Assembly (NCBI GenBank): GCA_016195685.1 | Contig: JACPZE010000044.1 | Location: forward strand, 633 to 64,632 | Origin: Candidatus Gottesmanbacteria bacterium | Lineage (GTDB): Bacteria > Patescibacteriota > Microgenomatia > 2-02-FULL-39-11 | Length of the DNA: 64,000 nt | Direction: 5' to 3' | Shown here: piece after piece, positions 1 to 50,831 of the stretch | Layout: each line of letters begins with the position of its first letter | Position numbering within the stretch: position 1 is the first letter of the stretch | Notes under the pieces: generated by a model | The model's input: the letters and a program-made list of their open reading frames with translations, nothing else | What the model was told of the DNA's origin: nothing | The model's database searches: none | Made by a program: the position numbers and the translations under genes

Positions 1-586
1 GGATTAATAAATAAAAAGATAAAGTAATAAAGAAAGTAAGATAAGTATCTACAGCGTAGAAGTGCGAGAGTTGGACAGGAAGAACCATGATGGAGTAGAG
101 GAACATAGCAAGAAGGGGTAAATTTCTAATTGACCTAATTTCTAATTGACCTAATTGAGATTTGGCGTTTGGGGATTTTTTAGAAATTAGAAATTTGGAT
201 TTAGAAATTGCTTGTTTAGCTATTAGATAAACAAGTATTACCGTTCCCAGATCTACCATCGCTGAGAGTTGTCTGCCTATGATGGTGAGGTGCCCATAAT
301 CACCTTTTCCCAGAAGTTCTGCCACCCATTTGGTGAAAAATACAGGGAAAGTGCCATAGACGAAAAAGCCAAAACCCCGGTTATGAGGATTTAATGGCGA
401 AATTCCCGTATCCAAGTATTCTCCAAAATCTTTGGGCCAGGAAATACCTGTAGCGACCATGGTGAGAAATCTTTCATCCGGGTGAAGATGCTGTCCTTGA
501 TCCCAGTTGACACCGTAGAGACGCAAGAATGCGGCAAGAAGTAAGATTCCTAATGCTAATATTAAGGTCGAGAGTTTCTTGTCCAT
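1..586 (-). CDS. GT-C (GT39/ArnT/PMT-like) membrane glycosyltransferase; ATG at 586, 3' end beyond the window start (partial)
   Basis: Reverse-strand translation from 586 gives MDKKLSTLILALGILLLAAFLRLYGVNWDQGQHLHPDERF. The HPDERF motif is typical of PMT/ArnT family 39 glycosyltransferases. No minus-strand stop was found down to position 2. Not in the ORF track because it is truncated. Confidence 0.55.
   Translation of the reverse strand, partial: MDKKLSTLILALGILLLAAFLRLYGVNWDQGQHLHPDERFLTMVATGISWPKDFGEYLDTGISPLNPHNRGFGFFVYGTFPVFFTKWVAELLGKGDYGHLTIIGRQLSAMVDLGTVILVYLIAKQAISKSKFLISKKSPNAKSQLGQLEIRSIRNLPLLAMFLYSIMVLPVQLSHFYAVDTYLTFFITLSFYLLI
121..210. repeat. Tandem short repeats (16-mer aatttctaattgacct x2.5, then agaaatt-type units) inside the partial GT-C ORF
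   Basis: Direct reading of the sequence; same family as the other heptamer-type repeats in this window. Confidence 0.6.
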
Positions 587-590
587 TAAT

Positions 591-700
591 TTTTAATTTT
601 CAATTTACAATGAATTTTCAATGATTTAATTATCAAATTGAAAAATTGAGATTTGATTGAAAACTGAAAATTTTAAATTGAAAATTGTTACCTAAGTTTA
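591..700. repeat. Intergenic tandem heptamer-type repeat tract (aattttc/aattgaa units)
   Basis: ttttaattttcaatttacaatgaattttcaatgatttaattatcaaattgaaaaattgag..., between two GT-C genes. Confidence 0.6.
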
Positions 701-2716
701 TCAGATATTAAATAATGATCGATACTCATCTATTGTAATCGGTTTGATCTTTCGATATATCCTTATCACCGGATGATCAAATACCGTGAATGTTTCTTCA
801 GCGCCCTCATCTGGAATACTTAATTGATAATTGCCCATTGATAATTGCGGAAAGGAATAAATTTCTGAAACTTTTTCAAACCCCAAGGCTCCAGAGAATA
901 ATAATTGATAATATTTTGTAACCAGGGGATATTTGTTTAGGATGTTGGGATAATTGGCAAATATTCTCCGAGAAGGGATGAAGATAAAATCGGACTTTTC
1001 CAGATGGTTTAGTAACTGCTGGAAAATCTGTGGATTTTCATCCATATGATAGAAATCAAAAGAGATAACCGTATAGTTTTTAGAAGTTGATTGCTGGTTT
1101 GTGGTTTTGGCTATGCCAAGTGGTATATCTACAACGTTGGCTGTTTCAGATAGTACATAAGAGTGATCCGGAATATTATTGTAAATCCAATAAGACGCTT
1201 GTAGTCTACTGTCATCATGGGTGTAGATGGACATAAACATCAATCCTGGAAGGATTGATGAAAATAAAAAGGCAAAAATCAAAAGGTAAAAGTAATTTTG
1301 AATTTTTCGACTGAAATTTTTTATGAATCGATAAATCAAATAAACTGTAAAAGCTGCAAAAATACTGAAGAATGGTAGTATCGGTGTCATAAACCTAGTC
1401 CATTTGGCAAAAAGAAAGGCGTTGGGGAGGAAATAGATAAGTAATGAAACCATTACTATAAATAATAATTGTAGCCCGTCCCGTTTTTTATTCTTTGTAT
1501 AATTTGAAATTTGAAATTTGAAATTTTTATTGAATTTGAAAATTTTTAATTTGAATCTTGATTGAAAATTGAAAATTGAAAATTGAAAATTTATTACTAG
1601 ATCAACAAAAAGAATGATAACTGCAGTTATAAACCCTAAAGATCCAAGGATAAACACCGGCCAGCCCAACGCATAGGGAAATATCTTTTCCGCCTGGAAA
1701 AGTATGGGTGTGGTGTTTGCAAATTGCCTGGTGTAAAAAGCCTCATATCTACCTGTGGCTACATCACTCTCATAGCCAAATACAGCGCTTTTAAAATCGG
1801 CAGGATCTGCTAAATTATATGGAGAAGATATGAAAAAAATTAAAGTACTGCCAACAAGGACCAATAATCCCATAAACCCATAAGCCAATAAGCCGGAAAT
1901 CCTCTTTTTACTCCTCTTATTTAATAGTTGGATGATTTGTATCAATAGAGTTATTGCAGTAGGAATAAGGAAAAAGATTCCAGTGAGTTTGCTTCCCAAG
2001 GCAAGACCGATGGTGAAAGACAAAAGTATTAAGTATTTAGTATTAAGTATGAAGTATTTGGGGAAAGATTTAACCGTTGCAATTTCCATCAATTTCATCG
2101 AAAAATATATTGATGCTAGAAAGAAAAAGGTGAGAAAAGATTCTGTGGTGCCGAAGTGAGCTGATTGGATAAGGCCGGGAGAAAAAGCAGTAGCTAGAGC
2201 AGCAAATAGTGAGTATTTGGTAGGAAGTAGTTTTTGGCAGAGAAGAAATACGAAGAAGACTGTGAAGATAGATGATAAAGTAGAATATAAACGGAGCCAA
2301 AAGATAGCGGAGGGGAAATTAGTGGATAGATAGTTAGTAGTTAGTAGTTGGTAGTTGGTAGTTGGTAGAAGGCGAAGTGAAAACTGGGTGATTTGGTCGC
2401 TAAAATATGCTAAATAAAGCGGAAACTGGCCATAGGAAAAGAAACGCGGGTTGAGATTACAGTTGTTGATTGTTAATTGTTGATTGTTAAGTGTTGATTG
2501 AAGATTAGGAGTTAACTGAGAAATGATACATGAAGGGATATCTGATAATTTTACCGGAAGGCGGAATTGGGAAATGGCATTGGCCATATTGCGCTCGTCA
2601 GGATCGAAGAAATAAGGAGCATCGTGCATGAGGTGGAAGAAGCGAAGGAAGGAAGCGATTAAGAGAATTATTATTAGTAGGTAAGTCTCATACTTTCGGA
2701 ACATTGTTACATTCAT
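701..2716 (-). CDS. GT-C family 39-like membrane glycosyltransferase (ArnT/PMT-like), 671 aa
   Basis: Multi-TM protein. The DPDERNM motif near the N-terminal loop matches GT39/PMT. It carries three in-frame low-complexity insertions encoded by heptamer repeats. Confidence 0.7.
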   Translation of the reverse strand: MNVTMFRKYETYLLIIILLIASFLRFFHLMHDAPYFFDPDERNMANAISQFRLPVKLSDIPSCIISQLTPNLQSTLNNQQLTINNCNLNPRFFSYGQFPLYLAYFSDQITQFSLRLLPTTNYQLLTTNYLSTNFPSAIFWLRLYSTLSSIFTVFFVFLLCQKLLPTKYSLFAALATAFSPGLIQSAHFGTTESFLTFFFLASIYFSMKLMEIATVKSFPKYFILNTKYLILLSFTIGLALGSKLTGIFFLIPTAITLLIQIIQLLNKRSKKRISGLLAYGFMGLLVLVGSTLIFFISSPYNLADPADFKSAVFGYESDVATGRYEAFYTRQFANTTPILFQAEKIFPYALGWPVFILGSLGFITAVIILFVDLVINFQFSIFNFQSRFKLKIFKFNKNFKFQISNYTKNKKRDGLQLLFIVMVSLLIYFLPNAFLFAKWTRFMTPILPFFSIFAAFTVYLIYRFIKNFSRKIQNYFYLLIFAFLFSSILPGLMFMSIYTHDDSRLQASYWIYNNIPDHSYVLSETANVVDIPLGIAKTTNQQSTSKNYTVISFDFYHMDENPQIFQQLLNHLEKSDFIFIPSRRIFANYPNILNKYPLVTKYYQLLFSGALGFEKVSEIYSFPQLSMGNYQLSIPDEGAEETFTVFDHPVIRIYRKIKPITIDEYRSLFNI
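1499..1592. repeat. In-ORF tandem heptamer repeat (aatttga x4, gaaaatt x4) encoding NFQFSIFNFQS...FKFQISN
   Basis: Read directly; the translation in the 701..2716 ORF is heptad periodic. Confidence 0.65.
2326..2368. repeat. In-ORF tandem heptamer repeat (ttagtag/ttggtag units) encoding TTNYQLLTTNYLSTN
   Basis: Read directly from the sequence. Confidence 0.6.
2461..2503. repeat. In-ORF tandem heptamer repeat (ttgattg/ttaattg units) encoding NNQQLTINNCNLN
   Basis: Read directly from the sequence. Confidence 0.6.
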
Positions 2717-11335: not shown

Positions 11336-12574
11336 TCAATCAATAAGACTTGCGACTTTTTGTCCAAGTTCAATTGCGTAGTTGGTGCCTCTGTCCCATG
11401 GGTATACCATGTCCATATTCGCTAGGTAAACGTTTGGGATGGGTGTAATAAAGTCTGGTTTTATCTTTGAGTAGTTTGTGGGGAAAACTGGTTGGGCGAA
11501 AGGACCCATAAATAATTGAGAATTGAGAATTAAGAATTGAGAATTAAGTCGGGGATTGATTTTTTGAAGATAGGGAAGATATAGTTTTAATAACTCATCT
11601 TTGGTCATTTTAAGGTAGGGATGACCTTCTGGGAGATAATTTCCTACCCAAGTAAGGTGTTTTCCGCCATAATGTTTTGCATCCACCAAATTAGTTTGTT
11701 GGATAACTGCAATAAAAGGGAAAGTCCTGTCATTTATATTGAGCCAATATTCCTTTTCAAGTATTTTCTCTTTTGTCACGAGCAGTAGATTTAAAGCGTG
11801 CAAATGTGGAATATTCGTAAGTCTTTCTTTATAATCTTTTGGAAGTTGTGGGTACATTTTTATGAATATTGGGGAGGGTGTAGTGATAATGATCTTGTCA
11901 TAGTCTGTCGTTTTTTTGGTATCAAAAGGAGTAGAAAGTAATATCTTACCCCCGTCTTTTTTAAATTGCTTTTCCATTGCGTCTATCAGAGTTTGGTATC
12001 CGCCTTCCAGGTATCCTAATACTAGAGTGCGTTTTTTTATCCTAGCCCAAAACCAAGCCATGTTTACTACTTTTGCAAACTTTCCGAATTTGCCGAATAG
12101 GAGTGGTTTCCAGACAATCTCATATACTTTTTCACCAAAATATTTTCTCAGCCACTCATGGGCCAGATGTTTTTCTAAATTCTGACCAGAATTCATCGAT
12201 AAAAGTTTCAGAAACAAAGTGATTAGCCCAAGTCTTAGTCGATCTGTAAACGGAAGGGGAGAGAAAAAAAGGATTTGCAGTGGAGAATTAAAAGGGTAGC
12301 TTGTTTCCTGATAATAGATAGAAGTAAGAGTTTTTGGGAAAAGTAACTTTTCGGAAAGTCCCAGTTTTTTAATCAAATTTAAAGCAAAGTAATCATTGGA
12401 AAACCAATGGTGGTAGTGTTTTTCCACATACCAATCTGTACCCGGTAACTTTACCGCCGAAGCTAAGCCGCCTAACTCGCCAGTTGCTTCAAAAAGAGTC
12501 ACTTTATGATTTTGGGAAAGAGAAAGGCCAGCAGAAAGTCCGGTAAATCCTCCTCCCACAATTGTGATTTTCAT
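11336..12574 (-). CDS. FAD/NAD(P)-binding oxidoreductase (amine oxidase / phytoene desaturase-like)
   Basis: MKITIVGGGFTGLSAGL is a Rossmann dinucleotide-binding N-terminus. The track start at 12598 is a GTG inside the upstream repeat element, so the ATG at 12574 is preferred. It contains an in-frame heptamer repeat encoding LNSQFLILNSQL. Confidence 0.7.
   Translation of the reverse strand: MKITIVGGGFTGLSAGLSLSQNHKVTLFEATGELGGLASAVKLPGTDWYVEKHYHHWFSNDYFALNLIKKLGLSEKLLFPKTLTSIYYQETSYPFNSPLQILFFSPLPFTDRLRLGLITLFLKLLSMNSGQNLEKHLAHEWLRKYFGEKVYEIVWKPLLFGKFGKFAKVVNMAWFWARIKKRTLVLGYLEGGYQTLIDAMEKQFKKDGGKILLSTPFDTKKTTDYDKIIITTPSPIFIKMYPQLPKDYKERLTNIPHLHALNLLLVTKEKILEKEYWLNINDRTFPFIAVIQQTNLVDAKHYGGKHLTWVGNYLPEGHPYLKMTKDELLKLYLPYLQKINPRLNSQFLILNSQLFMGPFAQPVFPTNYSKIKPDFITPIPNVYLANMDMVYPWDRGTNYAIELGQKVASLID
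11511..11548. repeat. In-ORF tandem heptamer repeat (aattgag/aattaag)
   Basis: ataattgagaattgagaattaagaattgagaattaagtc, read directly. Confidence 0.6.
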
Positions 12575-15032: not shown

Positions 15033-15110
15033 TTAATTGTTGATTGCTAATTGTTGATTGTTGATAGAATATTATTCAATTAACAATTGACTATTAACCA
15101 TTAACAATTC
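15031..15110. repeat. Intergenic tandem heptamer repeats (ttgattg/taattg, then ttaacaa-type)
   Basis: taattaattgttgattgctaattgttgattgttgatag...caattaacaattgactattaaccattaacaattc. Confidence 0.6.
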
Positions 15111-30597: not shown

Positions 30598-30640
30598 ATG
30601 TTTATACTTAATACCTAATACTTGATACTTAATACTATTT
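30598..30640. repeat. Heptamer-type repeats (tacttaa/tacctaa/tacttga) in the nadA-nadB divergent promoter region
   Basis: tttatacttaatacctaatacttgatacttaatactatttt. Confidence 0.55.
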
Positions 30641-35215: not shown

Positions 35216-37583
35216 TTTTCTTTCGAAAAATAATAAAAATTATTCCCAAGATTATTTCTCCGGCTAAAAGAAAAACTTTCAACTTATTCGGTTCATAGGT
35301 AAATTCCACTGTGTGAGTTCCGGGTGTGACTGGAGTAGCTAGATAAAATGGGAACACTGCGAATTTACTTGCCTCGTTTCCATCCAACTTTACCTTCCAA
35401 TCAGGATGGTAACTCATCTTAAACATGGCATAACAATATTTACAGTTATTCGGTACTTCAATTGTGGCGGAAAATGTTTGTTTTGATTGATTATCTTTGA
35501 TTATTTTTCCGGAAGGAGTAGATTCTGGAAACATGAGAGGAAAATCCGCGAATATATTCTTGGATTGCCCGTTTTCTATATAATTTGTTTCATCAGTCAT
35601 GGTTAAAACTCTTTGCATGTTTTGTGGAATAGTAGGATTATTCTCTACAGAGATAAGAGGGTGCATTTTCCACCTTCGGGTGTAGGAATTCCACCAATAA
35701 TGGACAAGGTTTAGATAATTCGTCTTATCGCTTTTTACCATCATTGGAGAAGTTACCACATCAAACCAACCGGTAGTAGGTGCCTGGAAAAGATTAAACG
35801 GGCCGTATTTATCAACCAATTTTAGACTAGATGCGAAACCTTCATTTTTCGCAGCTACAGCATATTTTATATTCAGCAGATCAAAGTCCAAAGCCTCTCT
35901 TTCATCAAAATCCTGCTCGTTTTCAGAAAGGGGCGACCAGGTTTCTGGTAGGAATTGGCTGATGTCATATCCTATACCTCCAAATAAAAGATAAAGTTCT
36001 GTTGATCCAAGTCTGAAATTTTTGCCCCAATTTCCAGGCCTTCCGGCATAGATTCTTCCGCGTGGAAGGGAATCGATCTTTGCGAGTAGATTTTGGAAAT
36101 TATGTTCATCATAGCGGTAGGCATCATTCGCCTGGTAAATCCATTTGTTATTTAAAGTGGCATAATCAGCAGTTTGTTTGGTAGTTATGTAGATCAAAAA
36201 GGATGCGAATATAAATAATAAGATATAAAAGACTATATTGAGATTTGGATTCACAGCCTCAATACCGAATTTCTCATCTGCGCGGGTTCTGCCGCGAAAG
36301 TATCCCAACTTCGTCCCGCTAAGCGGGACTACGTTTGGGAGTCCCTCCTTCGCGCCACCCACAGTTAATAATTTTGATATTTTATATTTGATTTTTGATA
36401 TAAACGAAAATAAATATTCCAACCCAGCTGGAATTAAGAATAGTGCTGCAATATGTACCCCCACTATAAATCTATGCTGGTGAAAGTCTTTCATACCGGG
36501 GATAAGATCGATCAGTCCTCCCCAAGTTGTTCTGCCAAAATATAAAATCATCCAGAAAGCAAAAAGAAGAGAAAAAGGAAAATATTTCCTGCGGATAGTC
36601 AGGACAAAAAAACCTGCCAAAACAAGAATAGTTACAATAGGGAATCTCTGCCAGTCAAAAATCTCCCCTGCAAACAGTTGTCTTGCCACTTCATACCATC
36701 CGTATGAATTGAATTTCCAGATAGGATCCCAGAAAGAGATGATGTGATATTGATTATTTAAAAGAATGGGAATAATCCAATATGAAAGAATTAAGAAACA
36801 TGAAGCAAGAATGAAGAATAATTTCTTACCCCTATTTATTATTTGAGATAAATTTAAATCTAGAAATATAAAAGGTATGGTAGAGAGAAATCCTATTATT
36901 CCGATACCTAGGTGTCCCATGACTGTGAGGGTGAGAAATATTATCGATTTTAAGGTGTATTTATTCCACAACTTGTAATCCTTACTACTTGATTCGTCAC
37001 CGATTAATGCCCTATAAGTAAAAGCAATTCCGAGTGGTAGGAAAATAAGTGCATAAAGCTGTGAAGTGAGTCCGTAGCCTCGCCAAAGGTAACTTGGCGG
37101 GTCAATACCGTAAAGTCCGTCTGTTGAGTAGTGAGCAGAGAAGAACGCTCCTAAAGCAGCCAAGATGGGTGAGAAACCAACTATTCTGAGAGCTAAAAAA
37201 ACAGATAGAGGAAAAAGACTTAGCAGTAAGTATTTTGTCCAATTATAGTAATTGTAAATTGAAAATTGAGAATTGAAAATTGAAGAGATGGGTTTAATAA
37301 AAAGATGATATGAGGAGACAATTGTTATTTGAGGTATATGACTGTAATAAAATGGAAGGGGATAACCTTCAGCCCAATTGGTTACATTATGGTCGATAAG
37401 ATTAGGTAAGCAAGATAAAGATAGTGGGCAACCGTAATTTTCCCAAACCCAATTGGTTCTGCCTACCAAAGAAAATTGAAAAATATTATCATTTGGATCA
37501 GCCAAGATTTGAGTCTCCGGATAGTTGAGCCAGAGATTAAAGATTATTGTTGCTGCTAATATTAAATAGGCGATGTATTTCAT
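35208..37583 (-). CDS. Large polytopic membrane protein, GT-C-like (YfhO/PMT-like), carrying an RPE-like insertion and heptamer-repeat insertions
   Basis: 791 aa with many TM helices and a C-terminal soluble domain. The element inserted in-frame gives LTVGGAKEGLPNVVPLSGTKLGYFRGRTRADEKF. Confidence 0.6.
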   Translation of the reverse strand: MKYIAYLILAATIIFNLWLNYPETQILADPNDNIFQFSLVGRTNWVWENYGCPLSLSCLPNLIDHNVTNWAEGYPLPFYYSHIPQITIVSSYHLFIKPISSIFNSQFSIYNYYNWTKYLLLSLFPLSVFLALRIVGFSPILAALGAFFSAHYSTDGLYGIDPPSYLWRGYGLTSQLYALIFLPLGIAFTYRALIGDESSSKDYKLWNKYTLKSIIFLTLTVMGHLGIGIIGFLSTIPFIFLDLNLSQIINRGKKLFFILASCFLILSYWIIPILLNNQYHIISFWDPIWKFNSYGWYEVARQLFAGEIFDWQRFPIVTILVLAGFFVLTIRRKYFPFSLLFAFWMILYFGRTTWGGLIDLIPGMKDFHQHRFIVGVHIAALFLIPAGLEYLFSFISKIKYKISKLLTVGGAKEGLPNVVPLSGTKLGYFRGRTRADEKFGIEAVNPNLNIVFYILLFIFASFLIYITTKQTADYATLNNKWIYQANDAYRYDEHNFQNLLAKIDSLPRGRIYAGRPGNWGKNFRLGSTELYLLFGGIGYDISQFLPETWSPLSENEQDFDEREALDFDLLNIKYAVAAKNEGFASSLKLVDKYGPFNLFQAPTTGWFDVVTSPMMVKSDKTNYLNLVHYWWNSYTRRWKMHPLISVENNPTIPQNMQRVLTMTDETNYIENGQSKNIFADFPLMFPESTPSGKIIKDNQSKQTFSATIEVPNNCKYCYAMFKMSYHPDWKVKLDGNEASKFAVFPFYLATPVTPGTHTVEFTYEPNKLKVFLLAGEIILGIIFIIFRKKIS
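36281..36368 (-). repeat. Palindromic RPE-like element, copy C, inserted in-frame in the GT-C-like gene
   Basis: cGCGGGTtctgccgcgaaagtatcccaacttcgtcccgctaagcgggactacgtttgggagtccctccttcgcgccACCCAC. It is in the same frame as copy B and the inner hairpin is 9 nt longer. Confidence 0.7.
37250..37286. repeat. In-ORF heptamer repeat (aattgta/aattgaa/aattgag) encoding SIFNSQFSIYNY
   Basis: aattgtaaattgaaaattgagaattgaaaattgaag. Confidence 0.6.
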
Positions 37584-39412
37584 TTATAAAGTACTGGGTT
37601 TAACCAGTCCGCGTGATCACTATTTATTCCGTCTCCTGCGTCTGTCACCATGAGTCCTAGAAATTTAACACCAGTTATATTCAAATTTACATGATTTGGG
37701 TAATCAAATCGGCCCATTCTTTTACTTTCAAAAAGTTTTTTTGTATCACCGTAAATGATAAAGACCGAAGAAGCAGGAGTGGCAGCTTCGGTGTCTATCC
37801 CAAAATCTGTAGAAAAACTTGTGAATTTCTTATCAATATCAAAAACCAAATTTGAGTTGGCATGAGTGCCGAAGCCTTTGCGGTAGAATAAGTAATTATT
37901 AGATAGTCTACTCCATGATTTAAAACCAGCGGAAGAATTTACTGATTGGTTTACTTGTAGTACGCCATAGTCTTGTTTGATCAGGACTGGTTTGAATAAA
38001 GTGAGTGAAATTGGTTTGCCAAAAATATAAGGGATGTTGAGAATTATTAAACAGACAACAATAAAAAAAGAACTCATGACAAAATATAAATATGATATTT
38101 GAGAGAATATATATGGCAGAAGGAGAAAGAATAAAAGAATTAGAAAGAAGGAATTAAAAATTGTCATTGGAACAGTAGTTAATCGTGTCAATAATTGGAA
38201 TCCATTTTGGGGATAATTTATTATCAGTCCATAATGCATGTTGAAAAAGATGGTGAAGGTAAGGAGGAGATATATGATCCAAAAATATTTTCCATTTCCG
38301 AAGAGACCACGGAAATTATATTTTTGATATTTAATATTTGATATCTCTAGAAAAGGATAGAGGAATAATAACAATACTATTACAGGATAGCTATATCTTT
38401 CGTGGCTTTGAGTAGTGAAGAGGAAAAAGGCAAAAATACCAAGCGATAATGATAATAAGAAATTTCGAGCAGTTGGTTTCAGAAATACAAGGATAGTTGA
38501 GAGAAGATAGAAACTAGAGAAAAGAATTAATCCAACAGTTTTGGCGTTCAGTATCCCCAAAATTGTTAATCTATCTGTCGCAGGCATTCCATGACCTTTG
38601 GCTACAATCCACCAGAGATTATGAGCATTAAGAGATAGCCACGGGAAATAGTCACCGTTGACGGTAAGAAGATAAAGTACTTGATTCATTTGGTGTTCCC
38701 AGATGAAAGGAAGGTTTAAGAAGAAAAAAGTTGCAACAGACATAGCCACACTTTTGATCATGGTATTTATATCGAAATACCGCCAGATAAAGATAAAATA
38801 GATAGGGATAAAAATGATATTTTGTAGTTTCATCATTGTTCCGGTAGTGAATAAAATGGTAGCAAGATGTGGACGCCGATAGAATAGAAGAATAATTGCA
38901 ACAAGGGTAAAAAGTATACCGAAAGACTCAACTTGTCCCCATATAGAAGAATCAAGGATAACGATAGGATTTAGGAAGAACGCAGAAGAAAGGAGAAGGG
39001 GAAGTATAGAGTATACTCTTGAATTTTTTTCGATAATTTCAGCACCAAGTTGTTTTAGTTTTTCTTTCTGTGAGAAAAACCAATATATGAGCCAGGCTAT
39101 CGCTACATCCGATATTATCGCCACAGATTTGGATACTGCCAGGAATCCGAAATTATTTTGCCGCCAAAAATTATTGAAATTGTGTGGATCGCCAATGAGA
39201 GAATAAGCTTTACCCATAAGCCAAAGCACGTAAAGGAATGCAGGAGGGTAGTTCGTGTTCGTATTTAGAGATGCCCATACTACGCCATGATCTGCTGCGG
39301 CTAGCCCCCAAGATTTCCAGAAAGAAATATCCGCCAAAAAACCCGTATTGCCGATAAAAAGGATTCTTAAGACTAATCCGATAAAGAGGATAAAGAGGAA
39401 TTTTTTAGACAT
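37580..39412 (-). CDS. GT-C-like polytopic membrane protein with a C-terminal NPCBM-like carbohydrate-binding domain
   Basis: About 12 TM helices. C-terminal KGFGTHANSNLVFDI...GVKFLGLMVTDAGDGINSDHADWLNPVL matches the NPCBM/NEW2 pattern. Confidence 0.65.
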   Translation of the reverse strand: MSKKFLFILFIGLVLRILFIGNTGFLADISFWKSWGLAAADHGVVWASLNTNTNYPPAFLYVLWLMGKAYSLIGDPHNFNNFWRQNNFGFLAVSKSVAIISDVAIAWLIYWFFSQKEKLKQLGAEIIEKNSRVYSILPLLLSSAFFLNPIVILDSSIWGQVESFGILFTLVAIILLFYRRPHLATILFTTGTMMKLQNIIFIPIYFIFIWRYFDINTMIKSVAMSVATFFFLNLPFIWEHQMNQVLYLLTVNGDYFPWLSLNAHNLWWIVAKGHGMPATDRLTILGILNAKTVGLILFSSFYLLSTILVFLKPTARNFLLSLSLGIFAFFLFTTQSHERYSYPVIVLLLFLYPFLEISNIKYQKYNFRGLFGNGKYFWIIYLLLTFTIFFNMHYGLIINYPQNGFQLLTRLTTVPMTIFNSFFLILLFFLLLPYIFSQISYLYFVMSSFFIVVCLIILNIPYIFGKPISLTLFKPVLIKQDYGVLQVNQSVNSSAGFKSWSRLSNNYLFYRKGFGTHANSNLVFDIDKKFTSFSTDFGIDTEAATPASSVFIIYGDTKKLFESKRMGRFDYPNHVNLNITGVKFLGLMVTDAGDGINSDHADWLNPVLYK

Positions 39413-39637: not shown

Positions 39638-41275
39638 ATGGTGAAAAAATTATTAATCTTTTTAAGTATTTTCTTTGTTTTCCTCTCTTTTTATCCTACA
39701 TTGTATGAAATCCAGCAAGCTAAAAATCTGCCAAATGAACGCTTTTTTGAATTAGTTCATAATTATGTTTTTGATTACAACTTCTATCTTTCAAGAATAA
39801 AAGAAGGGCAGGAGGGGAGATGGCTCGTAATTGAAAAATATTATAACAAGCCGCATCATGGTTCATTTTTTCAGATTTTTTATCTTTATCTAGGTAAGAT
39901 AGGTGGAATATTTCATCAGTCTAATGTGGTGATTTATCATGTCGCAAGAGTAATCCTGGGGCTTATATTATTACTACTAATCAGTAAATTAGTAATGAAT
40001 CTTTTCCCGAATTGGTGGAGTGTAGTTTCTTTTTTGATGATAGTTACTGTTGGAAGCTGGCCAATACTGATAAAACTGGGAGATGGTTGGCGTTTTGCCT
40101 CTCATTGGGGTGGGTGGTCGGTGATAGATAGTTTGCAGAGAATTACTTTTATCCCTCATGTAGTTTTTGGACAGATATTCTTGGTATTTTTTATCTGGAA
40201 ATTTGGTTTAAATCCCCAAAAAGAAAAAATTACCAGTTGGTTTTGGTGGTGGAATCTGGGTCTTCTCGCAGGGATAATATTTCCACCTGCCATCATCATA
40301 ATTTATGCGATTTTTGTAGTTTTATCTTTGTTGGAAATTATTGGAAATAAGTCAAATAAGGAATTTAAGTCACTTATTTTACCAAGAGTAGTCTTTATAA
40401 TCTTTTCTCTTCCTGCGCTTTTATATTTGCAGATCATGTTTAAAATAGAACCATGGAAAGCTCTATCACTATTTGACATCCAGCATAGGTCGATATTACC
40501 TTACTCTGAGTATGCCTTAGCATTGGGACCGATGTTGCCTTTAGGCTTGGTAGGATTATTTCTTGCTTTATATAAAAAAGAAAAAAAGTTTTATCCTTTC
40601 GCCGCATGGATAATAGCGTTGGGCTTTTTATTTCTAGTTTTTGAACACATACCACAACAATCTCCCACGCGTTTTACCCAGATGCTCATAAACATCCCCT
40701 TGGGCATTTTAGCGACTTATCTTTTTCATAATTTATGGCAGATTCGTGGTCGGTTGACAAGATTAGTCAGAGGAATAACAGTTATAATGTTTATAGCTGT
40801 TATATTACTTGGTTTTAGCGTAATGCTTTCAGAGTTGGGATGGCTTACGGACCAGGTAAGGTGGAAAAGGGAAGGGACCTGGCTTTATCCTGTCGGGGCG
40901 GAGCTGGTTTATCCGCTGAAAGACTTTATGAATGGTGTTTATTTTCTGAAGGATAATACTAGGCTGGAAGACATTGTTTTAGCTTATGAAGCTGCAGGAA
41001 ATTATATTCCCGCTTATGCCGGTAATTTTGTGTATTTAGGTCATGCCAACACACCGGATGAAGATGGAAAGTTATTAGTCGCAAACAAGTTTTTCAGCGG
41101 GAAAATGATACAAGCTGAAGCAAAAGGATTTCTTGAACGCGAAAACATCAAATACATCTATTTTGGTCCCCAAGAGAAGGAATTAAGTGACCTTACTGAC
41201 TTGTCGACAGTTTATAAATTCATTACTGCTACATACAGTAATAGTCGAGTAATTATCTATAAATTAAGTTTATAA
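39638..41275 (+). CDS. Polytopic membrane protein (GT-C-like), paralog of 41257..43005
   Basis: ORF. Shared motifs with its convergent neighbour (DYNFYLSRIKEGQEGRW vs DYYFYLSLMNEGANGAW; C-terminal IYKLSL vs IYKLNL). Confidence 0.55.
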   Translation: MVKKLLIFLSIFFVFLSFYPTLYEIQQAKNLPNERFFELVHNYVFDYNFYLSRIKEGQEGRWLVIEKYYNKPHHGSFFQIFYLYLGKIGGIFHQSNVVIYHVARVILGLILLLLISKLVMNLFPNWWSVVSFLMIVTVGSWPILIKLGDGWRFASHWGGWSVIDSLQRITFIPHVVFGQIFLVFFIWKFGLNPQKEKITSWFWWWNLGLLAGIIFPPAIIIIYAIFVVLSLLEIIGNKSNKEFKSLILPRVVFIIFSLPALLYLQIMFKIEPWKALSLFDIQHRSILPYSEYALALGPMLPLGLVGLFLALYKKEKKFYPFAAWIIALGFLFLVFEHIPQQSPTRFTQMLINIPLGILATYLFHNLWQIRGRLTRLVRGITVIMFIAVILLGFSVMLSELGWLTDQVRWKREGTWLYPVGAELVYPLKDFMNGVYFLKDNTRLEDIVLAYEAAGNYIPAYAGNFVYLGHANTPDEDGKLLVANKFFSGKMIQAEAKGFLERENIKYIYFGPQEKELSDLTDLSTVYKFITATYSNSRVIIYKLSL

Positions 41276-43005
41276 ATCGTCACCGCTTCTTTATCGTAAA
41301 CTGGTTTCAAAAGAGTAGGGTAAAGATAATTTTTGGCAAAAGGTTTTTCTTCCGGGCCTTGGAATACTAGAGCAATTTTATTACTCACAAGGAAGTTTTT
41401 AGCTTCTTCTGTGGTCATTTTATCTTCAAATAATCTTTGTGTATCATTTTCCTTTTCCTGCTCTTTATATGTATAGCCAAAATGGCCGATAAAACTGATC
41501 GTATTGGTATATGCTGGCAAATAATTTCCGGTATAAAAGGTAGAGAGTGTAACTGATTTGGTTGGATAATTTAGGTTTATGAAATTAAAAGCATCAAAAA
41601 TCCTATTATCCAGATAAACATTGCCATAAAATGGCCAGTATTCCCTGATCTGATCTTTGATACTCCAGTAAAGGGTGGGGTAAGTAAATATAATAAATAA
41701 CGTAATACTAGTAAGAGCAACTAAATTTGAAATTTGAAATTTGAAATTTGAAATGAAATCTAAATTTTTAATATTTAATTTTTGAAAATTCAATGAAAAT
41801 TTAAAATTGAAAATTGAAAATTGTTTAAGAAACTTTTCAATAGTCTTAATTCCCAGTATTGCTAGTATTGCCAATGGTAAATATGGTACCCCCTGTATTA
41901 AGCGGACATTTGAAAGATTTAATTTTGGAGCGATAGGTATAAAAAGAAGTGGAATTACTAACCAGCAAAGGATAAATATGTTTTCAAACTTTTTGGATTT
42001 TATGGTCTGATAAATTTCCATGATAGAAAATGGTAGAAGAATACCCAGCGCTCCAATTAGCTCTCTATCGAGGGGAAACTGCAGGTTTTTCTCCCAGTCG
42101 ATATACTGGCTCCAGGGAAAACCATTCTTGGTTTGAGAAACCATAAACAATAAAAATATTAACCCAATAACCCAATAACCCAATAACCCAATCAGTTTTG
42201 ACTTTTGAATTTTAACTTTTGAATTTTGGCCATTGGAAATATTTAAAAAGTAGTAAATCAACATGCTAGAAGGAATTATTAATAAGATGATCAGTAAGCT
42301 CGGTGTATGTACAAATGCCATAATTGCGCTAAGTAGAATGAGCCAGAATAGATATTTTCGTTGGGGTTTATTGATATATTTGAAAATGACAATTATTGAA
42401 GTGACAAGTAGAAATCCCCCCAACATGTGATGCGGTAGAAATGCGGCCCTTCTTACAGGATCGATGCCATTCCACCAATGCATGTAAGGTACTGACCGAA
42501 GAGTTCCATAATCATTGATAGTATGCATAAATGGTGAAGCAAATAAAAAGAAAAAGTATGTAAGATTTGGATATGGAATTTTGAGATATAAAATCAGGTA
42601 GTAAGAAGTAATAAGTAGGATTAAACCAAGAATAATTCTAGTCAGGTGATAGGTATAAGGATACCAAAGACCCAATATTTTGCTTAATCTACCAAGCCAC
42701 AAAAAGTAAGAAAAAATTATAGATGGTTGATGTCCTTCAGAAGTGTAAGGATCGTAAGTCATCCAAGCGCCATTTGCCCCTTCATTCATAAGAGAGAGAT
42801 AGAAGTAATAGTCTTGGGTATTGTTATGAATTAACGTCAAGGTACGGCCGGGAGGAGTATGTCTGACTTGCATGATCATCGGAGTGAGGTTGAGGGCAAG
42901 AATAAATAAAGTGGCGAGAACAAAAAAAACAATTTTTGATTTGAGGATTTTTAATATCACTGAGAATTTATTGTAAATTGTAAATTGTAAATTGTAAATT
43001 ACCAA
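41257..43005 (-). CDS. Polytopic membrane protein (GT-C-like) with two in-frame heptamer-repeat insertions
   Basis: ORF; paralog of the preceding gene. The insertions encode IFNFKFSLNFQKLNIKNLDFISNFKFQISN and LIGLLGYWVIGLIF. Confidence 0.55.
   Translation of the reverse strand: MVIYNLQFTIYNKFSVILKILKSKIVFFVLATLFILALNLTPMIMQVRHTPPGRTLTLIHNNTQDYYFYLSLMNEGANGAWMTYDPYTSEGHQPSIIFSYFLWLGRLSKILGLWYPYTYHLTRIILGLILLITSYYLILYLKIPYPNLTYFFFLFASPFMHTINDYGTLRSVPYMHWWNGIDPVRRAAFLPHHMLGGFLLVTSIIVIFKYINKPQRKYLFWLILLSAIMAFVHTPSLLIILLIIPSSMLIYYFLNISNGQNSKVKIQKSKLIGLLGYWVIGLIFLLFMVSQTKNGFPWSQYIDWEKNLQFPLDRELIGALGILLPFSIMEIYQTIKSKKFENIFILCWLVIPLLFIPIAPKLNLSNVRLIQGVPYLPLAILAILGIKTIEKFLKQFSIFNFKFSLNFQKLNIKNLDFISNFKFQISNLVALTSITLFIIFTYPTLYWSIKDQIREYWPFYGNVYLDNRIFDAFNFINLNYPTKSVTLSTFYTGNYLPAYTNTISFIGHFGYTYKEQEKENDTQRLFEDKMTTEEAKNFLVSNKIALVFQGPEEKPFAKNYLYPTLLKPVYDKEAVTIYKLNL
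41723..41824. repeat. In-ORF tandem heptamer repeats (aatttga x4 ... aaattga x3)
   Basis: ctaaatttgaaatttgaaatttgaaatttgaaatgaaatc...aaattgaaaattgaaaattg. Confidence 0.65.
42160..42230. repeat. In-ORF tandem repeats (aacccaat x4, then ttttgaa/ttttaac units)
   Basis: aacccaataacccaataacccaataacccaatcagttttgacttttgaattttaacttttgaatttt. Confidence 0.6.
42970..43000. repeat. Intergenic tandem heptamer repeat (ttgtaaa x4)
   Basis: ttgtaaattgtaaattgtaaattgtaaatt. Confidence 0.6.
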
Positions 43006-43795: not shown

Positions 43796-45414
43796 CATCT
43801 AAGATCAGAAATTTCATCAAAAAAAATTCCATTCTGATTTTAGTATCAGTAATCTACCTCATTTTTATCACACTATACTCAGGTTTTGTTCCCATGTGGG
43901 ATGCTTGGGAATATGTAGATTATTGGATATATAGGGCAGTGAGTTTGCCTTTTAATACTTTTAACTTTGATTTTGGCAGCCACGTATCTTTCTTTTATTC
44001 CTTTCTTATAAGCATTCCGGCATACTTTGATTTCGCTAATACCTACCTACTTTATTTGTTGATAGCCTTACTTACGATTCTTTCCGCTTTTGCTTTCTAT
44101 AGTATTTTATCTTGGATTTTTCCTGGGATAAACCAAAGACCAGAATTTCATCTTCTGACCATTCTTTACTTATTTTTTCCAGTAGCCACTGCCAATATTT
44201 TCCAGATCAATCCTGACACAGGAGTAATGATTTTTTTCATCATATTCTTAGCTTTCCTTATACAGAAGAACTATTTTTGGGCATTTCTTGCTGGAACCTT
44301 TTTGGTTTTTACCAAGGAGACTGGTATGGCTCTTTATATTTTTACCTTGGTTTTGTATTCTTTATACTTGAAGTTTACAACAGGAAAATTACAGTACAGA
44401 TCTGTCAAATTGCTCAAATGGATGGCACTTTTTTCCATACCACTTGTATTGTTTGCGATAAATATATTAATTCGGATCATATGGCTAAATCGAGGTTTTC
44501 AACTCCACCGTTTTGGGTCAATAGTGAACTCTTCTGATCTGATCACCTTTTCATCTCATACTGTTTCTAGATTACCTTATTCATATTTTCTTACAATATT
44601 TGTTCTCAATTTTAATTGGATACTTTCAGCCTTTTTGTCTTTGGGAGTATTTAGTTGGGGAAGGGAATTGATCAGTACCATAAAAAAGAAAAAAAATATC
44701 AACACTTCCTCACTAGCTAATCACGGATTTATAATCACTCTTTTTTTGGGAGCCTTTTTCATAATGAATATTTATAAAACCTTTACCAATCCTCGTTATT
44801 TTCTGTCTCTATACCCCCTGATGATTGTCCTTTTTTACAAAGGATTGACTTTTATCTTTGCTGGAAGAATGCTTAGAAGGGTTGTTTTATCAGTCGTAGT
44901 TTTGATTTTATTGCTCACCAATTTCCAAACTTTAGATCCTATTTCCAAAATAATTTTTGGTACATTTAAATTTGGGAGTCATGATATGCTTCTTATGACG
45001 GGGATAACGGGGGAGTGCTGTGGATACGGAAGGGATCAGATAGTCTATAATCTGGAGTATACAAATATCCATTACCTGGTGAATAAAATATTGAAAGACA
45101 TAAAACCAGATGAAAAGACAGCGATAGCTTTCACTCCATGGGAAGGGCCTTATGTTCTTGTCCGAATGGATAAGGGTCAATACGAAAGAACGCTTAGAAA
45201 ATCCGGTATTTTGGAAATTGATAGAAACTTAGTTACATGGACCTTTGATTCTTTAACTATCAAGCCTTACAGGCTTTATTTTCTTGATTTCCCAAATAAT
45301 AACGGCAGTTTTTATTTGTCTTATTATTTAAAATATTACAATATAGAAAATATCAAAACATACGACAATTGGGGTTACCAGATGAAAGTGTATCTACTGA
45401 GATTGAAAAAGTAA
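43792..45414 (+). CDS. Polytopic membrane protein (GT-C-like)
   Basis: ORF with at least 10 TM helices. The start is moved to the internal MTSKIRNF to avoid overlap with the GT2 gene. Confidence 0.5.
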   Translation: MTSKIRNFIKKNSILILVSVIYLIFITLYSGFVPMWDAWEYVDYWIYRAVSLPFNTFNFDFGSHVSFFYSFLISIPAYFDFANTYLLYLLIALLTILSAFAFYSILSWIFPGINQRPEFHLLTILYLFFPVATANIFQINPDTGVMIFFIIFLAFLIQKNYFWAFLAGTFLVFTKETGMALYIFTLVLYSLYLKFTTGKLQYRSVKLLKWMALFSIPLVLFAINILIRIIWLNRGFQLHRFGSIVNSSDLITFSSHTVSRLPYSYFLTIFVLNFNWILSAFLSLGVFSWGRELISTIKKKKNINTSSLANHGFIITLFLGAFFIMNIYKTFTNPRYFLSLYPLMIVLFYKGLTFIFAGRMLRRVVLSVVVLILLLTNFQTLDPISKIIFGTFKFGSHDMLLMTGITGECCGYGRDQIVYNLEYTNIHYLVNKILKDIKPDEKTAIAFTPWEGPYVLVRMDKGQYERTLRKSGILEIDRNLVTWTFDSLTIKPYRLYFLDFPNNNGSFYLSYYLKYYNIENIKTYDNWGYQMKVYLLRLKK

Positions 45415-45418
45415 TTTG

Positions 45419-46378
45419 TCAGTCAAAATTAATTTTTTCTCTGATAATTACAAAATATTTCCTACGGACTTGAGAATGGATAGCACCGATATATTCTCCC
45501 ATAACTCCTAGGAAAAAAAGCTGAATGCCTGCAAAAATAAAAATAAGAAATATAACGCCAGTTAATCCTGGAACTGTGACTTTCCAGTAGAAAATCTTCA
45601 ATGATAAATAGATGACTGCGCTTAAGAAACTAAGTAGTGACAAGAAAAGACCAATATAGGTACAAATACGCATAGGTAGAATAGAATAGTTAATAATTCC
45701 ATTTATGGCAAAATCTATAAGATACCGAAGAGAACTTTTGGAATGTCCTTTGCCTTTCGGCCTGGCATTCCTTTGATAGACGATTGCTTTTTTATTGAAA
45801 CCGGCTGTCGTTACAAGGCCTCTCAAATAAGGATTGTAGTCGTCAATTTTTTTTATCTCATCAACGATTATCTTATCTATAAGGCAAAAAGAACCAACAT
45901 TCAAGGGCAATTCATCAGAAGCAAGAAACCTCTCCAAACGGTAAAATATTTTTCGTGCAAAACTCAGAAGAGGATTATCTCTTGTTTTATTTCTTACTCC
46001 ATATACTAACTGATGCCCATCTTCCCAATATTTAATGAAAGTTGGTATAAGAGAAGCAGGATCCTTCATACTGCCTTCGTAAGGGATTACAGCGTCACCT
46101 GATGTGTGGATCAGGCCGGTAAATCCACTTTTCTCCGGTCCGAAGTTTCTCGAATACGACAATATCTTTACTCTTTTATCCTTTTTGGCGATGGTTTTCA
46201 GGATTGAAAGGGTAGCATCGGTGGAGCAGTTGTCCATGAAGATATGCTCATAATTGTATTTTGGAAGTTTCGAAAATGTTTTTTTAATAGCCTCATAGAC
46301 ATCCCTGACAAGGAGTTCTTCATTGAATACTCCAGTTACTACAGATATTTTCTTCATATTTATGATATTAAATCCCAA
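45419..46378 (-). CDS. GT2 glycosyltransferase, ArnC/GtrB-like, with a C-terminal 2-TM anchor
   Basis: KKISVVTGVFNEE...MDNCSTD... plus two C-terminal TM helices. Confidence 0.8.
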   Translation of the reverse strand: MGFNIINMKKISVVTGVFNEELLVRDVYEAIKKTFSKLPKYNYEHIFMDNCSTDATLSILKTIAKKDKRVKILSYSRNFGPEKSGFTGLIHTSGDAVIPYEGSMKDPASLIPTFIKYWEDGHQLVYGVRNKTRDNPLLSFARKIFYRLERFLASDELPLNVGSFCLIDKIIVDEIKKIDDYNPYLRGLVTTAGFNKKAIVYQRNARPKGKGHSKSSLRYLIDFAINGIINYSILPMRICTYIGLFLSLLSFLSAVIYLSLKIFYWKVTVPGLTGVIFLIFIFAGIQLFFLGVMGEYIGAIHSQVRRKYFVIIREKINFD

Positions 46379-47421
46379 CTTAAAGGAGTGCCTCTTTTTA
46401 TGAACTTTTGAGCTTTCTTACCCAGAATTTTATCATAATATTTTGGAGCTAGGCCAAAACCAGGACGTATCGACCTTATATTCTTTTTTGTTAAACGTCC
46501 ACCTTTTTTTATATCTTCAACTGCAAACAGGGATCGGCTGAATGGACGGCTTTTATTATACTTTTCCTTTCCGACAACTGATGGGTTACCCAATGCTTGC
46601 TCTACCTGCCTGATGCTTTTAACCATTGATTTGAATTCTTTAAAATCCAGCGAAAATGGTGAATCCGGCCCGCCTAATTTCTTATCGAGGATAAAATGTT
46701 TCTCGATTACCCGGGCCCCTAAGGTAACTGCCGCCACAGGAACATTTATGCCTAAAGTATGGTCAGAAAGGCCCACTAATGTTTTTAGTTTTTCACGCAT
46801 TGTAGTAATTGCTGAAAGATTAGTATTTTTAAATGGTGTCGGATAAAGTGATGTACATTTGAGGAATACAAGTTTATTATTGCCATTTCTCATAAATATT
46901 TTCTTAATCTTATAAAGATCATCAAGGTCTGTGAGGCCAGAAGATATAAACACGGGTTTTTTCTTGGCAGCAACATAATTTACAAAATAAGGATCGACAG
47001 CTTCAAAAGAAGAGATTTTAAATACAGGCACATCCATCTTATCCAAAAAATCTGTAGCCGTCTCATCAAATGGGGTAGAGAAAAGGATGAGACCCAAATC
47101 TTGTGCGATCTTTTGAAGTTTTGGATGCCATTCCCAGGGTGTATAGGCTTCTTTATAAAGGTCATATAATGTTTTGCCGTACCAAAGAGAACCAGATTTA
47201 ATCCGGAAATATTTGTTATTCTCATTGATAGTTAGAGTATCGGCTGTATAGGTTTGCAATTTCACTGCGTCAGCTCCGCTATCTTTTATCGCTTTAAGAG
47301 TTTTGACGGCAATATCAAAGTTATGGTTATGGTTACCTGAGAGTTCAGCGACAATAAATACAGGAGAATGGTCGCCGATTTTTTTATTGCCTATTTTTAT
47401 TTGGAGGGAAAATGGATTCAT
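46360..47421 (-). CDS. pseI: Nonulosonic acid synthase (NeuB/PseI/LegI family) with a C-terminal SAF domain
   Basis: IGNKKIGDHSPVFIVAELSGNHNHNFDIAVKTLKAIKDSGADAVKLQTY. Confidence 0.8.
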   Translation of the reverse strand: MNPFSLQIKIGNKKIGDHSPVFIVAELSGNHNHNFDIAVKTLKAIKDSGADAVKLQTYTADTLTINENNKYFRIKSGSLWYGKTLYDLYKEAYTPWEWHPKLQKIAQDLGLILFSTPFDETATDFLDKMDVPVFKISSFEAVDPYFVNYVAAKKKPVFISSGLTDLDDLYKIKKIFMRNGNNKLVFLKCTSLYPTPFKNTNLSAITTMREKLKTLVGLSDHTLGINVPVAAVTLGARVIEKHFILDKKLGGPDSPFSLDFKEFKSMVKSIRQVEQALGNPSVVGKEKYNKSRPFSRSLFAVEDIKKGGRLTKKNIRSIRPGFGLAPKYYDKILGKKAQKFIKRGTPLSWDLIS

Positions 47422-47995
47422 ACTTTTTTAACAAGTCCTTAACCCCAATATTCCAACTTGGGGAAATTAGTGAACGAATTTTATCAAAATCCCTAAGTGT
47501 ATGTATACTACCTTTGTCTTTTTGTTTTTGTGGTTTTATTTCAAACTTTCTTATTTCATCCCAATTCTTTATGAATAAATTCTGTAATTCTTCATGCAGC
47601 TTCAAATAAGATGATTGAAGCGTCTCTTTTGCTGAATGAAAATTGACACTCTTTTGTACTAGTATATCGCCAGTATCCAGTCCTTTATCAATCAGATGAA
47701 TTGTAACCCCCTTGGGAGTCTTTTTGAGAAAGCTCCAAAGGTTAGGATGTGCACCACGGTTCCAAGGGAGGTAAGAAATATGCAAGTTGATTGTTTTTCC
47801 GAAAATCAGATTCAAAATATCTTCGGGTATGATATACTTGTAGTTGTAACTGATCACAATATCGGGTTTAAATCTTACAATATCAGTCTTTTTGATCTTT
47901 GCTTCTAGAACCTTTACTGTATTATTTTCTTTTTCCCAAAGCCATTTGATGAGTGGATCAGGAATGATACCATTCTTGAGAAAAAGAATTTTCAT
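47384..47995 (-). CDS. Sugar N-formyltransferase (Fmt N-terminal domain family)
   Basis: NLHISYLPWNRGAHP and HLIDKGLDTGDIL are formyltransferase catalytic motifs. Confidence 0.7.
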   Translation of the reverse strand: MKILFLKNGIIPDPLIKWLWEKENNTVKVLEAKIKKTDIVRFKPDIVISYNYKYIIPEDILNLIFGKTINLHISYLPWNRGAHPNLWSFLKKTPKGVTIHLIDKGLDTGDILVQKSVNFHSAKETLQSSYLKLHEELQNLFIKNWDEIRKFEIKPQKQKDKGSIHTLRDFDKIRSLISPSWNIGVKDLLKKYESIFPPNKNRQ

Positions 47996-47998
47996 AGA

Positions 47999-49141: not shown

Positions 49142-49142
49142 A

Positions 49143-50830: not shown

Positions 50831-50831
50831 A

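Follow-up and report, generated by a model that had tools for sequence, protein, structure and literature searches.

Heptanucleotides have been reported to form the most abundant class of long simple sequence repeats (SSRs) in most prokaryotic genomes, and polymerase slippage has been suggested as their source (summarised in PMC4679880, PMC4692102). For TAACTGA repeats it was described that arrays in reverse orientation are translated in frame into a repeating heptapeptide, and a role in translational regulation was proposed (PMC4679880). Units of 7 nt are also known from neuO of Escherichia coli K1, where AAGACTC is located in the 5' coding region in 3-53 copies (mode 20) and 65.6% of the neuO genomes are OFF (PMC13001214), and from the hmw1A/hmw2A promoters of Haemophilus influenzae with ATCTTTC repeats, where hmw1A constructs carry 13-24 copies (PMC8262952). 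The tandem repeats within open reading frames (ORFs) of Borgs encode amino-acid repeats and disordered regions; their units are all divisible by three, perfect and fast-evolving within populations (PMC9879509). Here we analyzed tandem heptanucleotide arrays in a window of 64,000 nt (the whole stretch of DNA under study) from a metagenome-assembled genome (MAG) of Candidatus Gottesmanbacteria, which belongs to the Microgenomates within the candidate phyla radiation (CPR). Our focus is the tract 41706-41826 inside the minus-strand gene 41257-42960, here referred to as the focal gene, whose ORF is 100% identical to the NCBI protein HY029_06180 (P0001).

A literature search found no description of heptanucleotide arrays of this kind for CPR bacteria, and the window represents a new host lineage for an already known kind of repeat. 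Like the long SSRs of other prokaryotes (the short tandemly repeated repetitive (STRR) sequences of cyanobacteria, GGGAATC of Xanthomonas and TAACTGA of Beggiatoaceae), as summarised in two reports, the arrays are short head-to-tail series of a 7-nt unit in 2-6 copies at many loci, with intergenic enrichment and a preference for period 7 (PMC4679880, PMC4692102). As with TAACTGA repeats, they occur within ORFs in the stop-free orientation only, giving a repeating heptapeptide (PMC4679880). They differ from the known prokaryotic heptamer SSRs in their CPR host, in having many AT-rich units instead of one favoured unit, in the unusually large share found in frame within a few membrane protein genes of the GT-C glycosyltransferase type, and in the lack of G-quadruplex potential, HIP1 sites or a cyanobacterial context. 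A cyanobacterial STRR/HIP1 origin was rejected: there are no GCGATCGC sites in the window, the proteins are those of Gottesmanbacteria, and the units are AT-rich and different. We consider the arrays to be, probably, microsatellites made by slippage and tolerated in segments of low constraint, and not switches.

In total, about 20 period-7 arrays with at least 12 distinct units were detected in the window by Tandem Repeats Finder (TRF). Exact period-7 arrays of at least three copies numbered six, compared to a mean of 0.0 in 20 dinucleotide shuffles, and each of the periods 5, 6 and 8-15 yielded 0-1 such arrays. When imperfect arrays (at least 85% self-match) were counted, there were 16 of period 7 versus 3, 1, 2 and 0 for periods 5, 6, 8 and 9. 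The overall density on the contig was about 0.25 arrays per kb. Assignment of the arrays to genes by a manual ORF-based gene list revealed a very uneven distribution. Intergenic DNA (~4.1 kb) contained seven arrays, that is ~1.7 per kb, and five minus-strand genes for polytopic membrane proteins (~8.5 kb in total) contained 11, or ~1.3 per kb. The other coding DNA (~51 kb) contained two (~0.04 per kb), one in a gene of the flavin adenine dinucleotide (FAD) amine-oxidase family and a weak one in a family 2 glycosyltransferase (GT2) gene, so that the coding total was 13 arrays in ~60 kb. The features of the long-SSR heptanucleotide class are all present: head-to-tail copies of a unit within the 5-11 nt range, three or more of them, an excess over chance and over neighbouring periods, many units and enrichment in non-coding DNA. 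Perfect runs generally comprised 3-5 copies, the longest perfect heptamer run in the window being the 4.6 copies in the focal gene, and many arrays were decayed, most with 70-92% matches in TRF.

All tracts listed in the original prediction, which was made from the letters of the window, were recovered by TRF and in the sequence, and their positions agree with those it gave or differ by a few bases. The quoted units (AATTTGA, TGAAAAT, AATTGAG, TTGGTAG, ATTGTTG/TTGTTGA and ATTGTAA) and peptides (INFQFSIFNFQ, NFKFQISN, FNSQFSIYNY and LNSQFLILNSQ) are real as well. Most of the tracts are heptamer arrays as claimed, with the exception of 42160-42192, an octanucleotide array, and 121-156, a 16-nt repeat.

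The focal gene (41257..42960, minus strand, GTG start at 42960) encodes a polytopic membrane protein of 567 aa, for which a Pfam search gave no match. An AlphaFold2 (AF2) model (predicted local distance difference test (pLDDT) 83.4; predicted template modelling score 0.86) comprised 11 long helices, followed by a soluble domain at the C-terminus (residues 441-567). The top 26 matches of this model in a Foldseek search of the PDB were GT-C enzymes only, namely AglB, STT3, AftA, DPY19, PglB and ArnT, with a probability of 1.0 and a TM-score of ~0.5. Judged from the model, the product has a predicted GT-C glycosyltransferase fold. There are 90 homologs of the focal protein, nearly all from Gottesmanbacteria or Microgenomates. 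An alignment of 28 sequences of the focal family (alignment A1) revealed an invariant H45-N46-N47-x-Q49-D50 motif after transmembrane helix 1 (TM1), a candidate for the conserved acidic residue that GT-C enzymes carry in the first extracytoplasmic loop; its catalytic role and its side of the membrane are presumptive. In the window the gene has a paralog and GT2 genes as neighbours, and in most Gottesmanbacteria loci (L004-L018) it is found in clusters of 2-4 paralogous GT-C genes with 22-31% identity. This neighbourhood indicates a large envelope-glycosylation island.

In coding-strand order the focal tract 41706-41826 consists of about four copies of (CAATTTT), ~40 nt of decayed heptamers and a perfect (CAAATTT)4.6 array, all on the minus strand. 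The first array (41794..41823, 4.3 copies, three of them perfect) supplies the peptide QFSIFNFKF, where variable loop 2 begins. The heptamer remnants between the two arrays (41755..41793) encode LNFQKLNIKNLDF, and across them only the real reading frame is free of stops. The perfect array (41723..41754, AAATTTG on the plus strand) encodes ISNFKFQISN at the end of the loop. TRF reported 41723-41822 as a single row of period 7 with 14.7 copies, 74% matches and 10% indels. A further imperfect (TTCAAAA)x4.7 array (42196..42228, minus strand) encodes QNSKVKIQKSK in variable loop 1. The octanucleotide array at 42160..42192 (minus strand) is perfect: TAACCCAA, which reads TTGGGTTA on the coding strand, is present in 4.1 copies. 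Its translation, IGLLGYWVIGL, opens a transmembrane helix, and this helix start is conserved in the family (A1 consensus IGLLxYWxIGL). DNA of 8-nt periodicity was also present at this site in the orthologs L004, L005 and L007 and absent in six other orthologs, which suggests that tandem duplication either built this helix segment or has re-homogenised it repeatedly. Finally, the 73-nt spacer between the focal gene and a divergently oriented GT2 gene contains a perfect (ATTGTAA)x4.4 array (42970..43000), which is 10 nt upstream of the GTG.

The original prediction had the in-ORF tracts read in a particular frame. No such frame exists, since three units of 7 nt amount to 21 nt and an array passes through all three phases, so that any frame gives one and the same cyclic heptapeptide. 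Frame and heptad periodicity of the array peptides are thus arithmetic and carry no added information. Phase cycling also means that a unit within an ORF must be stop-free in all three phases. On the plus strand all 19 AT-rich consensus units contain a stop, and 11 of them are stop-free on the minus strand; among all AT-rich 7-mers in the window 46% are stop-free. The units on the coding strand are without G, so that TAA is the one stop codon they could contain. Avoidance of TAA places any run of A after the single C and gives the units their shared look of CAA followed by A or T, as in CAAATTT, CAATTTT, CAATTCT, CAATTTA and CAACAAT. A special family of units or elements behind the common CAA core is unneeded, as TAA avoidance in G-less units suffices.

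Within the focal family the array peptides fill two blocks of alignment A1 (columns ~320-385 and ~513-600) which differ in length and sequence in every homolog. The lowest AF2 confidence in the focal protein was found at residues 381-410 (mean pLDDT per block: 53, 48 and 52); in the model this is the loop between the helices 360-380 and 410-440. Both variable loops are K-rich and contain no acidic residues, and the invariant motifs are located in alternate loops. From the eleven helices followed by a C-terminal domain, the alternation of the motifs and the loop charge, we infer that both variable loops are probably cytoplasmic. If so, they are on the face opposite to that of the loops which are conserved and presumably catalytic. 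A search with the PMT_2 gene 701-2716 among 1.84 billion representatives found 2920 relatives, and most matches break at residues ~363-420. In an alignment of 20 sequences of this family (alignment A2), all five array segments of the gene are in variable or indel-rich columns. The loop that first follows the DPDERN motif contains two of these arrays, hence not all array sites are cytoplasmic. Repeats at lag 7 in the peptides were enriched in both families (8 versus 0.6 shuffled and 13 versus 1.4 shuffled).

The orthologs L004, L005, L007 and L009 carry clear heptamer arrays of differing kind in loop 1, loop 2 or TM2. T/C-rich period-7 arrays in TM2 were present in L004 and L009, with a weaker case of two T-rich matches in the TM2 region of L016. 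Arrays therefore occur in some transmembrane helix segments and not in loops alone. The second possibility raised in the original prediction, a proliferating microsatellite tolerated as loop insertions, is supported by the variable and indel-rich columns and by the predicted, probably cytoplasmic, loops that hold the focal arrays; it needs to be widened to these helix segments. Orthologs at 50-65% identity had different arrays, or none, at matching sites, so the arrays turn over, if slowly. The number of arrays in the 15 ortholog loci was variable (0-4 per ~20 kb).

Copy-number stability was compared at the contig level, using Logan assemblies and MAG proteins, for 8 arrays outside the gene 701-2716 across three runs. 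Logan contigs from SRR12113410, SRR12113414 and SRR12113415 showed no gap relative to the window across these 8 arrays. The array 11514..11548 was identical in contig L141 from another run, and the array 37250..37284 in contig L002. In the strain from SRR12113409 (L019), which is 0.3% diverged (10 mismatches per 3193 nt), the copy numbers at 15036-15109 were unchanged. The proteins P0026 and P0245 from MAGs of different projects (542/544 identical residues) shared the identical array peptide KNFKFQISNY. Among ten clusters at 90% identity, full-length members differed in length at the termini only in the pairs that were aligned, and a flank-gap-flank scan of metagenomes of the Joint Genome Institute (JGI) for strain variants returned none. 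According to the original prediction, a lack of length polymorphism combined with identical tracts in orthologs would argue for fixed features. Polymorphism was indeed not seen, as far as assemblies can reveal it, while the orthologs do not carry identical tracts.

These data bear on the first interpretation of the original prediction, namely that the arrays are the signature of contingency loci, in which slippage by one unit toggles GT-C genes or a promoter and thereby makes the surface glycan of an episymbiont phase-variable. We regard this as unlikely, even though several features speak for it. The unit is not divisible by three, and, as had been predicted, gain or loss of one unit shifts the frame; at any of the four focal-gene arrays it cuts the 567-aa protein to 251-419 aa. 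The arrays are concentrated in envelope-glycan enzymes, the genes of which are often phase-variable in pathogens. In this respect the claim that nearly all in-ORF hosts are surface-glycan GT-C genes holds for the GT-C type (Pfam PMT/PMT_2, YfhO/DUF6541 and weak ALG6/8 matches, GT-C fold matches), while their part in a surface glycan is presumptive. Furthermore, the perfect array 10 nt upstream of the focal start codon is the best sigma-70-like match in its spacer, three short-read contigs end within the longest perfect array, and neuO and the hmw1A promoter provide precedents with 7-nt units (PMC13001214, PMC8262952). Like these, the window has 7-nt units, in-ORF copy numbers that must preserve the frame, and an array located in a promoter or 5' region.

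However, neuO and hmw1A have long perfect tracts; strains differ in carrying ON or OFF alleles, and heterogeneity can be measured within a culture. The window, by contrast, has 3-5 perfect copies (compared to 3-53 with a mode of 20 in neuO and 13-24 in hmw1A constructs), all genes ON and no strain-level variation seen. Most arrays are 70-90% decayed, and they are positioned in the middle or late part of the genes, in variable loops, instead of at the 5' end. All array-carrying genes of the window, six in number, are in frame and intact. Likewise, 15 of 15 orthologs from GTDB species representatives gave single-frame full-length matches, and most paralogs are also in frame, in contrast to the 65.6% of neuO genomes that are OFF. 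Copy numbers were identical over four runs, the 0.3%-diverged strain and the two near-identical MAGs, and intergenic DNA is equally dense in such arrays. Two candidates for OFF alleles were discarded. The contig of the truncated homolog P0073 begins to diverge behind an (AAAATGC) array and runs on for another 44 nt only, which makes it uninformative, and the split homolog KKS45895/KKS45896 is broken in TM8-9, outside the arrays.

Of four testable defining features of a contingency locus, the window lacks three. A one-unit change does shift the frame, and one array is placed 10 nt before a start codon. No tract in the window is long and perfect enough for hypermutability, 4.6 copies being the longest perfect heptamer run; outside 41723-41754, where contigs end, the assemblies contained no unit-number differences among close strains; and there was no OFF allele among the array genes of the window or the 15 orthologs. 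The arrays do not fit the Borg type either, for which units divisible by three and perfect amino-acid repeats are defining, since the units here are of 7 nt and in one case of 8 nt. As in Borgs, in-ORF repeats add low-complexity or disordered segments, mainly to membrane and extracellular proteins, and homologs have different repeats at similar places. In contrast to Borgs, only changes by three units hold the frame; the arrays are also short, in many cases decayed, and they remain stable from strain to strain.

Our preferred explanation, tolerated slippage products, would work as follows. Replication slippage would generate heptamer arrays anywhere in the genome, and arrays would persist where selection permits, in intergenic spacers and in the low-constraint segments of a few polytopic GT-C-type proteins. 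Within ORFs two filters would apply. The unit would have to be stop-free in all phases, which in AT-rich DNA forces G-less units with any run of A behind the single C, in an orientation fixed relative to the gene, and the net change in length would have to be a multiple of 3 nt. Translation then necessarily yields a peptide with a period of 7 residues in which F, N, Q, I, S and K predominate, subject to later decay by point mutation. Over the time of species divergence the arrays may create and reshape variable loops, and at times hydrophobic helix segments, while being stable between strains, and they would be raw material for loop-length evolution rather than switches.

Four sets of observations weigh against this explanation. 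In the window the in-ORF arrays are confined to minus-strand genes, and four plus-strand genes for polytopic proteins have none, among them a paralog 25% identical to the focal gene; pure tolerance leaves this restriction unexplained. Every period-7 array is located within the first 43.3 kb, where the cumulative GC skew rises; the skew climbs to ~44 kb and then flattens or falls (1-44000 versus 44001-64000). Possibly, the pattern of strand and skew is an effect of the replication strand, or the skew has a turning point there. Secondly, the focal ortholog group holds 8 of the 16 arrays in ~9% of the DNA of the 15 loci, a hotspot that could reflect selection for variability and not tolerance. 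Thirdly, perfect arrays such as the 8-mer are found in orthologs whose synonymous sites are expected to be saturated, which points to ongoing homogenisation or re-expansion and thus to mutationally active arrays. Finally, three Logan contigs, from two runs, break off within the perfect (AAATTTG)4.6 array: 41751 is the last position of L002 and L003, L001 begins at 41745, and the overlap is 7 nt only. Logan contigs bridge the ATTGTAA array (31 nt) and the octanucleotide array (33 nt) without a break. The ends at 41745-41751 might reflect heterogeneity at the read level; de Bruijn arithmetic with k=31 for alleles of plus or minus one unit failed to reproduce contig ends at 41751 and 41745. The strand restriction, the hotspot and the contig ends leave our preferred explanation standing; of these, the contig ends alone may yet point to heterogeneity.

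A more far-reaching proposal joins both time scales. Slippage arrays of 7-nt and 8-nt units would be an evolvability device of CPR episymbionts in which rare on/off events in GT-C genes and the divergent promoter create glycan heterogeneity, while in the long term new loops and transmembrane segments arise, with the helix start encoded by the 8-nt array as an example and the contig breaks as a first trace. We give this little credence.

We think it similarly improbable that the arrays, mainly the intergenic ones, are regulatory elements of DNA or RNA, such as promoters built from repeats or protein-binding sites. In the focal spacer the best sigma-70-like match is the array itself (minus strand, 42998-42970), with TTTACA and TACAAT separated by 17 nt and 10/12 matching positions. 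The start predicted from it lies 2-3 nt ahead of the GTG, and loss of one unit would abolish the 17-nt spacing. Array-built hexamer pairs with 17-18 nt spacing were found upstream of three genes in all (42998-42970, 15080-15108 and 30622-30651), and a translational role has been suggested for TAACTGA repeats (PMC4679880). The count of promoter-like matches, though, was not above that of shuffles around 42970..43000 or in any other region examined, a search of the window against Rfam returned two tRNAs only and no match at the arrays, the units vary from site to site, and the in-ORF arrays would be left unexplained.

Very little speaks for the heptad peptides as a selected structural feature, in which F or I alternating with N, Q, K or S would form functional amphipathic segments. 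The hydrophobic/polar alternation is there, NFKFQISN recurs in two unrelated genes of the window and several homologs, and the 8-nt array encodes a family-conserved helix start. This recurrence comes from a common DNA unit and not from a conserved position, as orthologs carry unrelated peptides or nothing at these loops; the pLDDT at the array loop is 48-53, and the same units are present in non-coding spacers. Moreover, the arrays create spurious homology from a common repeat unit: the sole BLASTP similarity between the unrelated products of the genes 701-2716 and 41257-42960 is 53 residues of array-derived peptide with 45% identity. An artefact of assembly or sequencing is hardly conceivable, despite the error-prone short-read assembly of tandem repeats and the contig breaks at one array, given that independent Logan assemblies of four runs reproduce the arrays base for base, the ORFs are open through all arrays and MAGs of other studies carry arrays of the same kind.

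If the arrays are tolerated microsatellites, the practical value is modest. The prokaryote-wide excess of heptanucleotides would extend to CPR bacteria, two filters (stop-free units and multiples of 3 nt) would govern which units survive in ORFs, and the focal family would be a concrete case of microsatellites as raw material for the evolution of membrane-protein loops. Annotators should be aware that array peptides of the FNFKFQIS type give spurious similarity and inflate loop variability in GT-C families. Only if reads revealed heterogeneity of unit number would the arrays provide evidence, the first of its kind, that envelope glycosylation is phase-variable in an episymbiont lineage that is uncultivated.

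The remaining array sites are spread over the first 39 kb of the window. At its edge, the 5' part of a gene for a polytopic protein with an HPDER motif (1..585, minus strand) is cut and contains in-frame arrays at 121-156 (the 16-nt repeat, x2.2) and 180-209 (TTAGAAA). The following spacer between two minus-strand genes (586..687) is packed with short period-7 arrays of TTAATTT and ATTGAAA. The gene 701..2716 (minus strand), of the PMT/PMT_2 GT-C type according to Pfam, carries its five in-frame arrays at 821-847, 1501-1588, 2024-2058, 2319-2368 and 2463-2500. The (CTCAATT)x4.6 array in the gene of the FAD amine-oxidase family (11514..11548, minus strand) is in frame and encodes LNSQFLILNSQL; it is the only clear in-ORF array of the window outside GT-C-type genes. 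Between rho and an M23 peptidase gene two adjacent intergenic arrays are found at 15036..15109 (ATTGTTG x4.3 and CAATTAA x4.7). An intergenic (ATACTTA)x4.7 array (30604..30636) is located upstream of a flavoprotein gene of the FAD_binding_2 family.

Two further minus-strand genes with arrays adjoin each other. The gene 35208-37583 has Pfam matches to DUF6541 and YfhO below the curated cut-offs and contains an imperfect (TATCAAA)x4.1 array (36373..36401, minus strand), encoding ISKIKYKISK in frame, and a (TTCAATT)x5 array (37250..37284, minus strand), encoding IFNSQFSIYNY in frame. The gene 37580-39412, with an NPCBM domain and a weak ALG6/8 match in Pfam, has a weak in-frame (TATCAAA)x3.1 array (38323..38344, minus strand). 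The ORF 35208-37583 additionally harbours a GC-rich (~59%) insert of ~105 nt (36255-36360, minus strand), translated in frame as GGAKEGLPNVVPLSGTKLGYFRGRTRADEKFG, with a predicted hairpin of -45.6 kcal/mol. It resembles a small palindromic repeat element that is tolerated within the reading frame. Translated inserts of a similar kind, GC-rich and hairpin-forming, are present in the variable loops of focal-gene homologs (…GVTRGRTRK, …LGMTR…). That these loops accept such inserts too is consistent with sites of low constraint. The gene 33986-35215 on the plus strand encodes RTX calcium-binding nonapeptide repeats with nine Pfam stretches. Its DNA periodicity of 27 nt and 18 nt (TRF 34686-34768 and 34938-34981) is ordinary codon-level repetition and unrelated to the heptamer arrays.

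Arrays of this kind are not confined to the window. A scan of JGI metagenomes for (AAATTTG)x4 found at least 120 contigs of 30-63% GC, with 4-7.3 copies among the matches listed. Among these, 86 contigs had 4 copies, 30 had 5, three had 6 and one had 7, and in 75 of 120 an ORF of 150 aa or more on the CAAATTT strand contained the array. The matches listed contained 176 further period-7 arrays of many units, compared to 2-23 for each of the other periods from 5 to 12; their density of 0.24 per kb matches the 0.25 per kb of the window. The length of (CAAATTT)n in metagenomes peaks at 33-34 nt, which is in part a bias of phase detection, and a residual peak remains. In metagenome contigs of 55-63% GC (L058, L026, L064, L070 and L118) the AT-only (CAAATTT)4-6 arrays had sharp edges. 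Some of the arrays in high-GC contigs are inside long ORFs, including one of 1471 aa and one of 899 aa with an AMP-binding-like SGSTGQPKG motif. In these contigs the (CAAATTT) arrays often have neighbouring arrays whose units are related, for example CCCAAAT, CAGATCT and TAATTTC.

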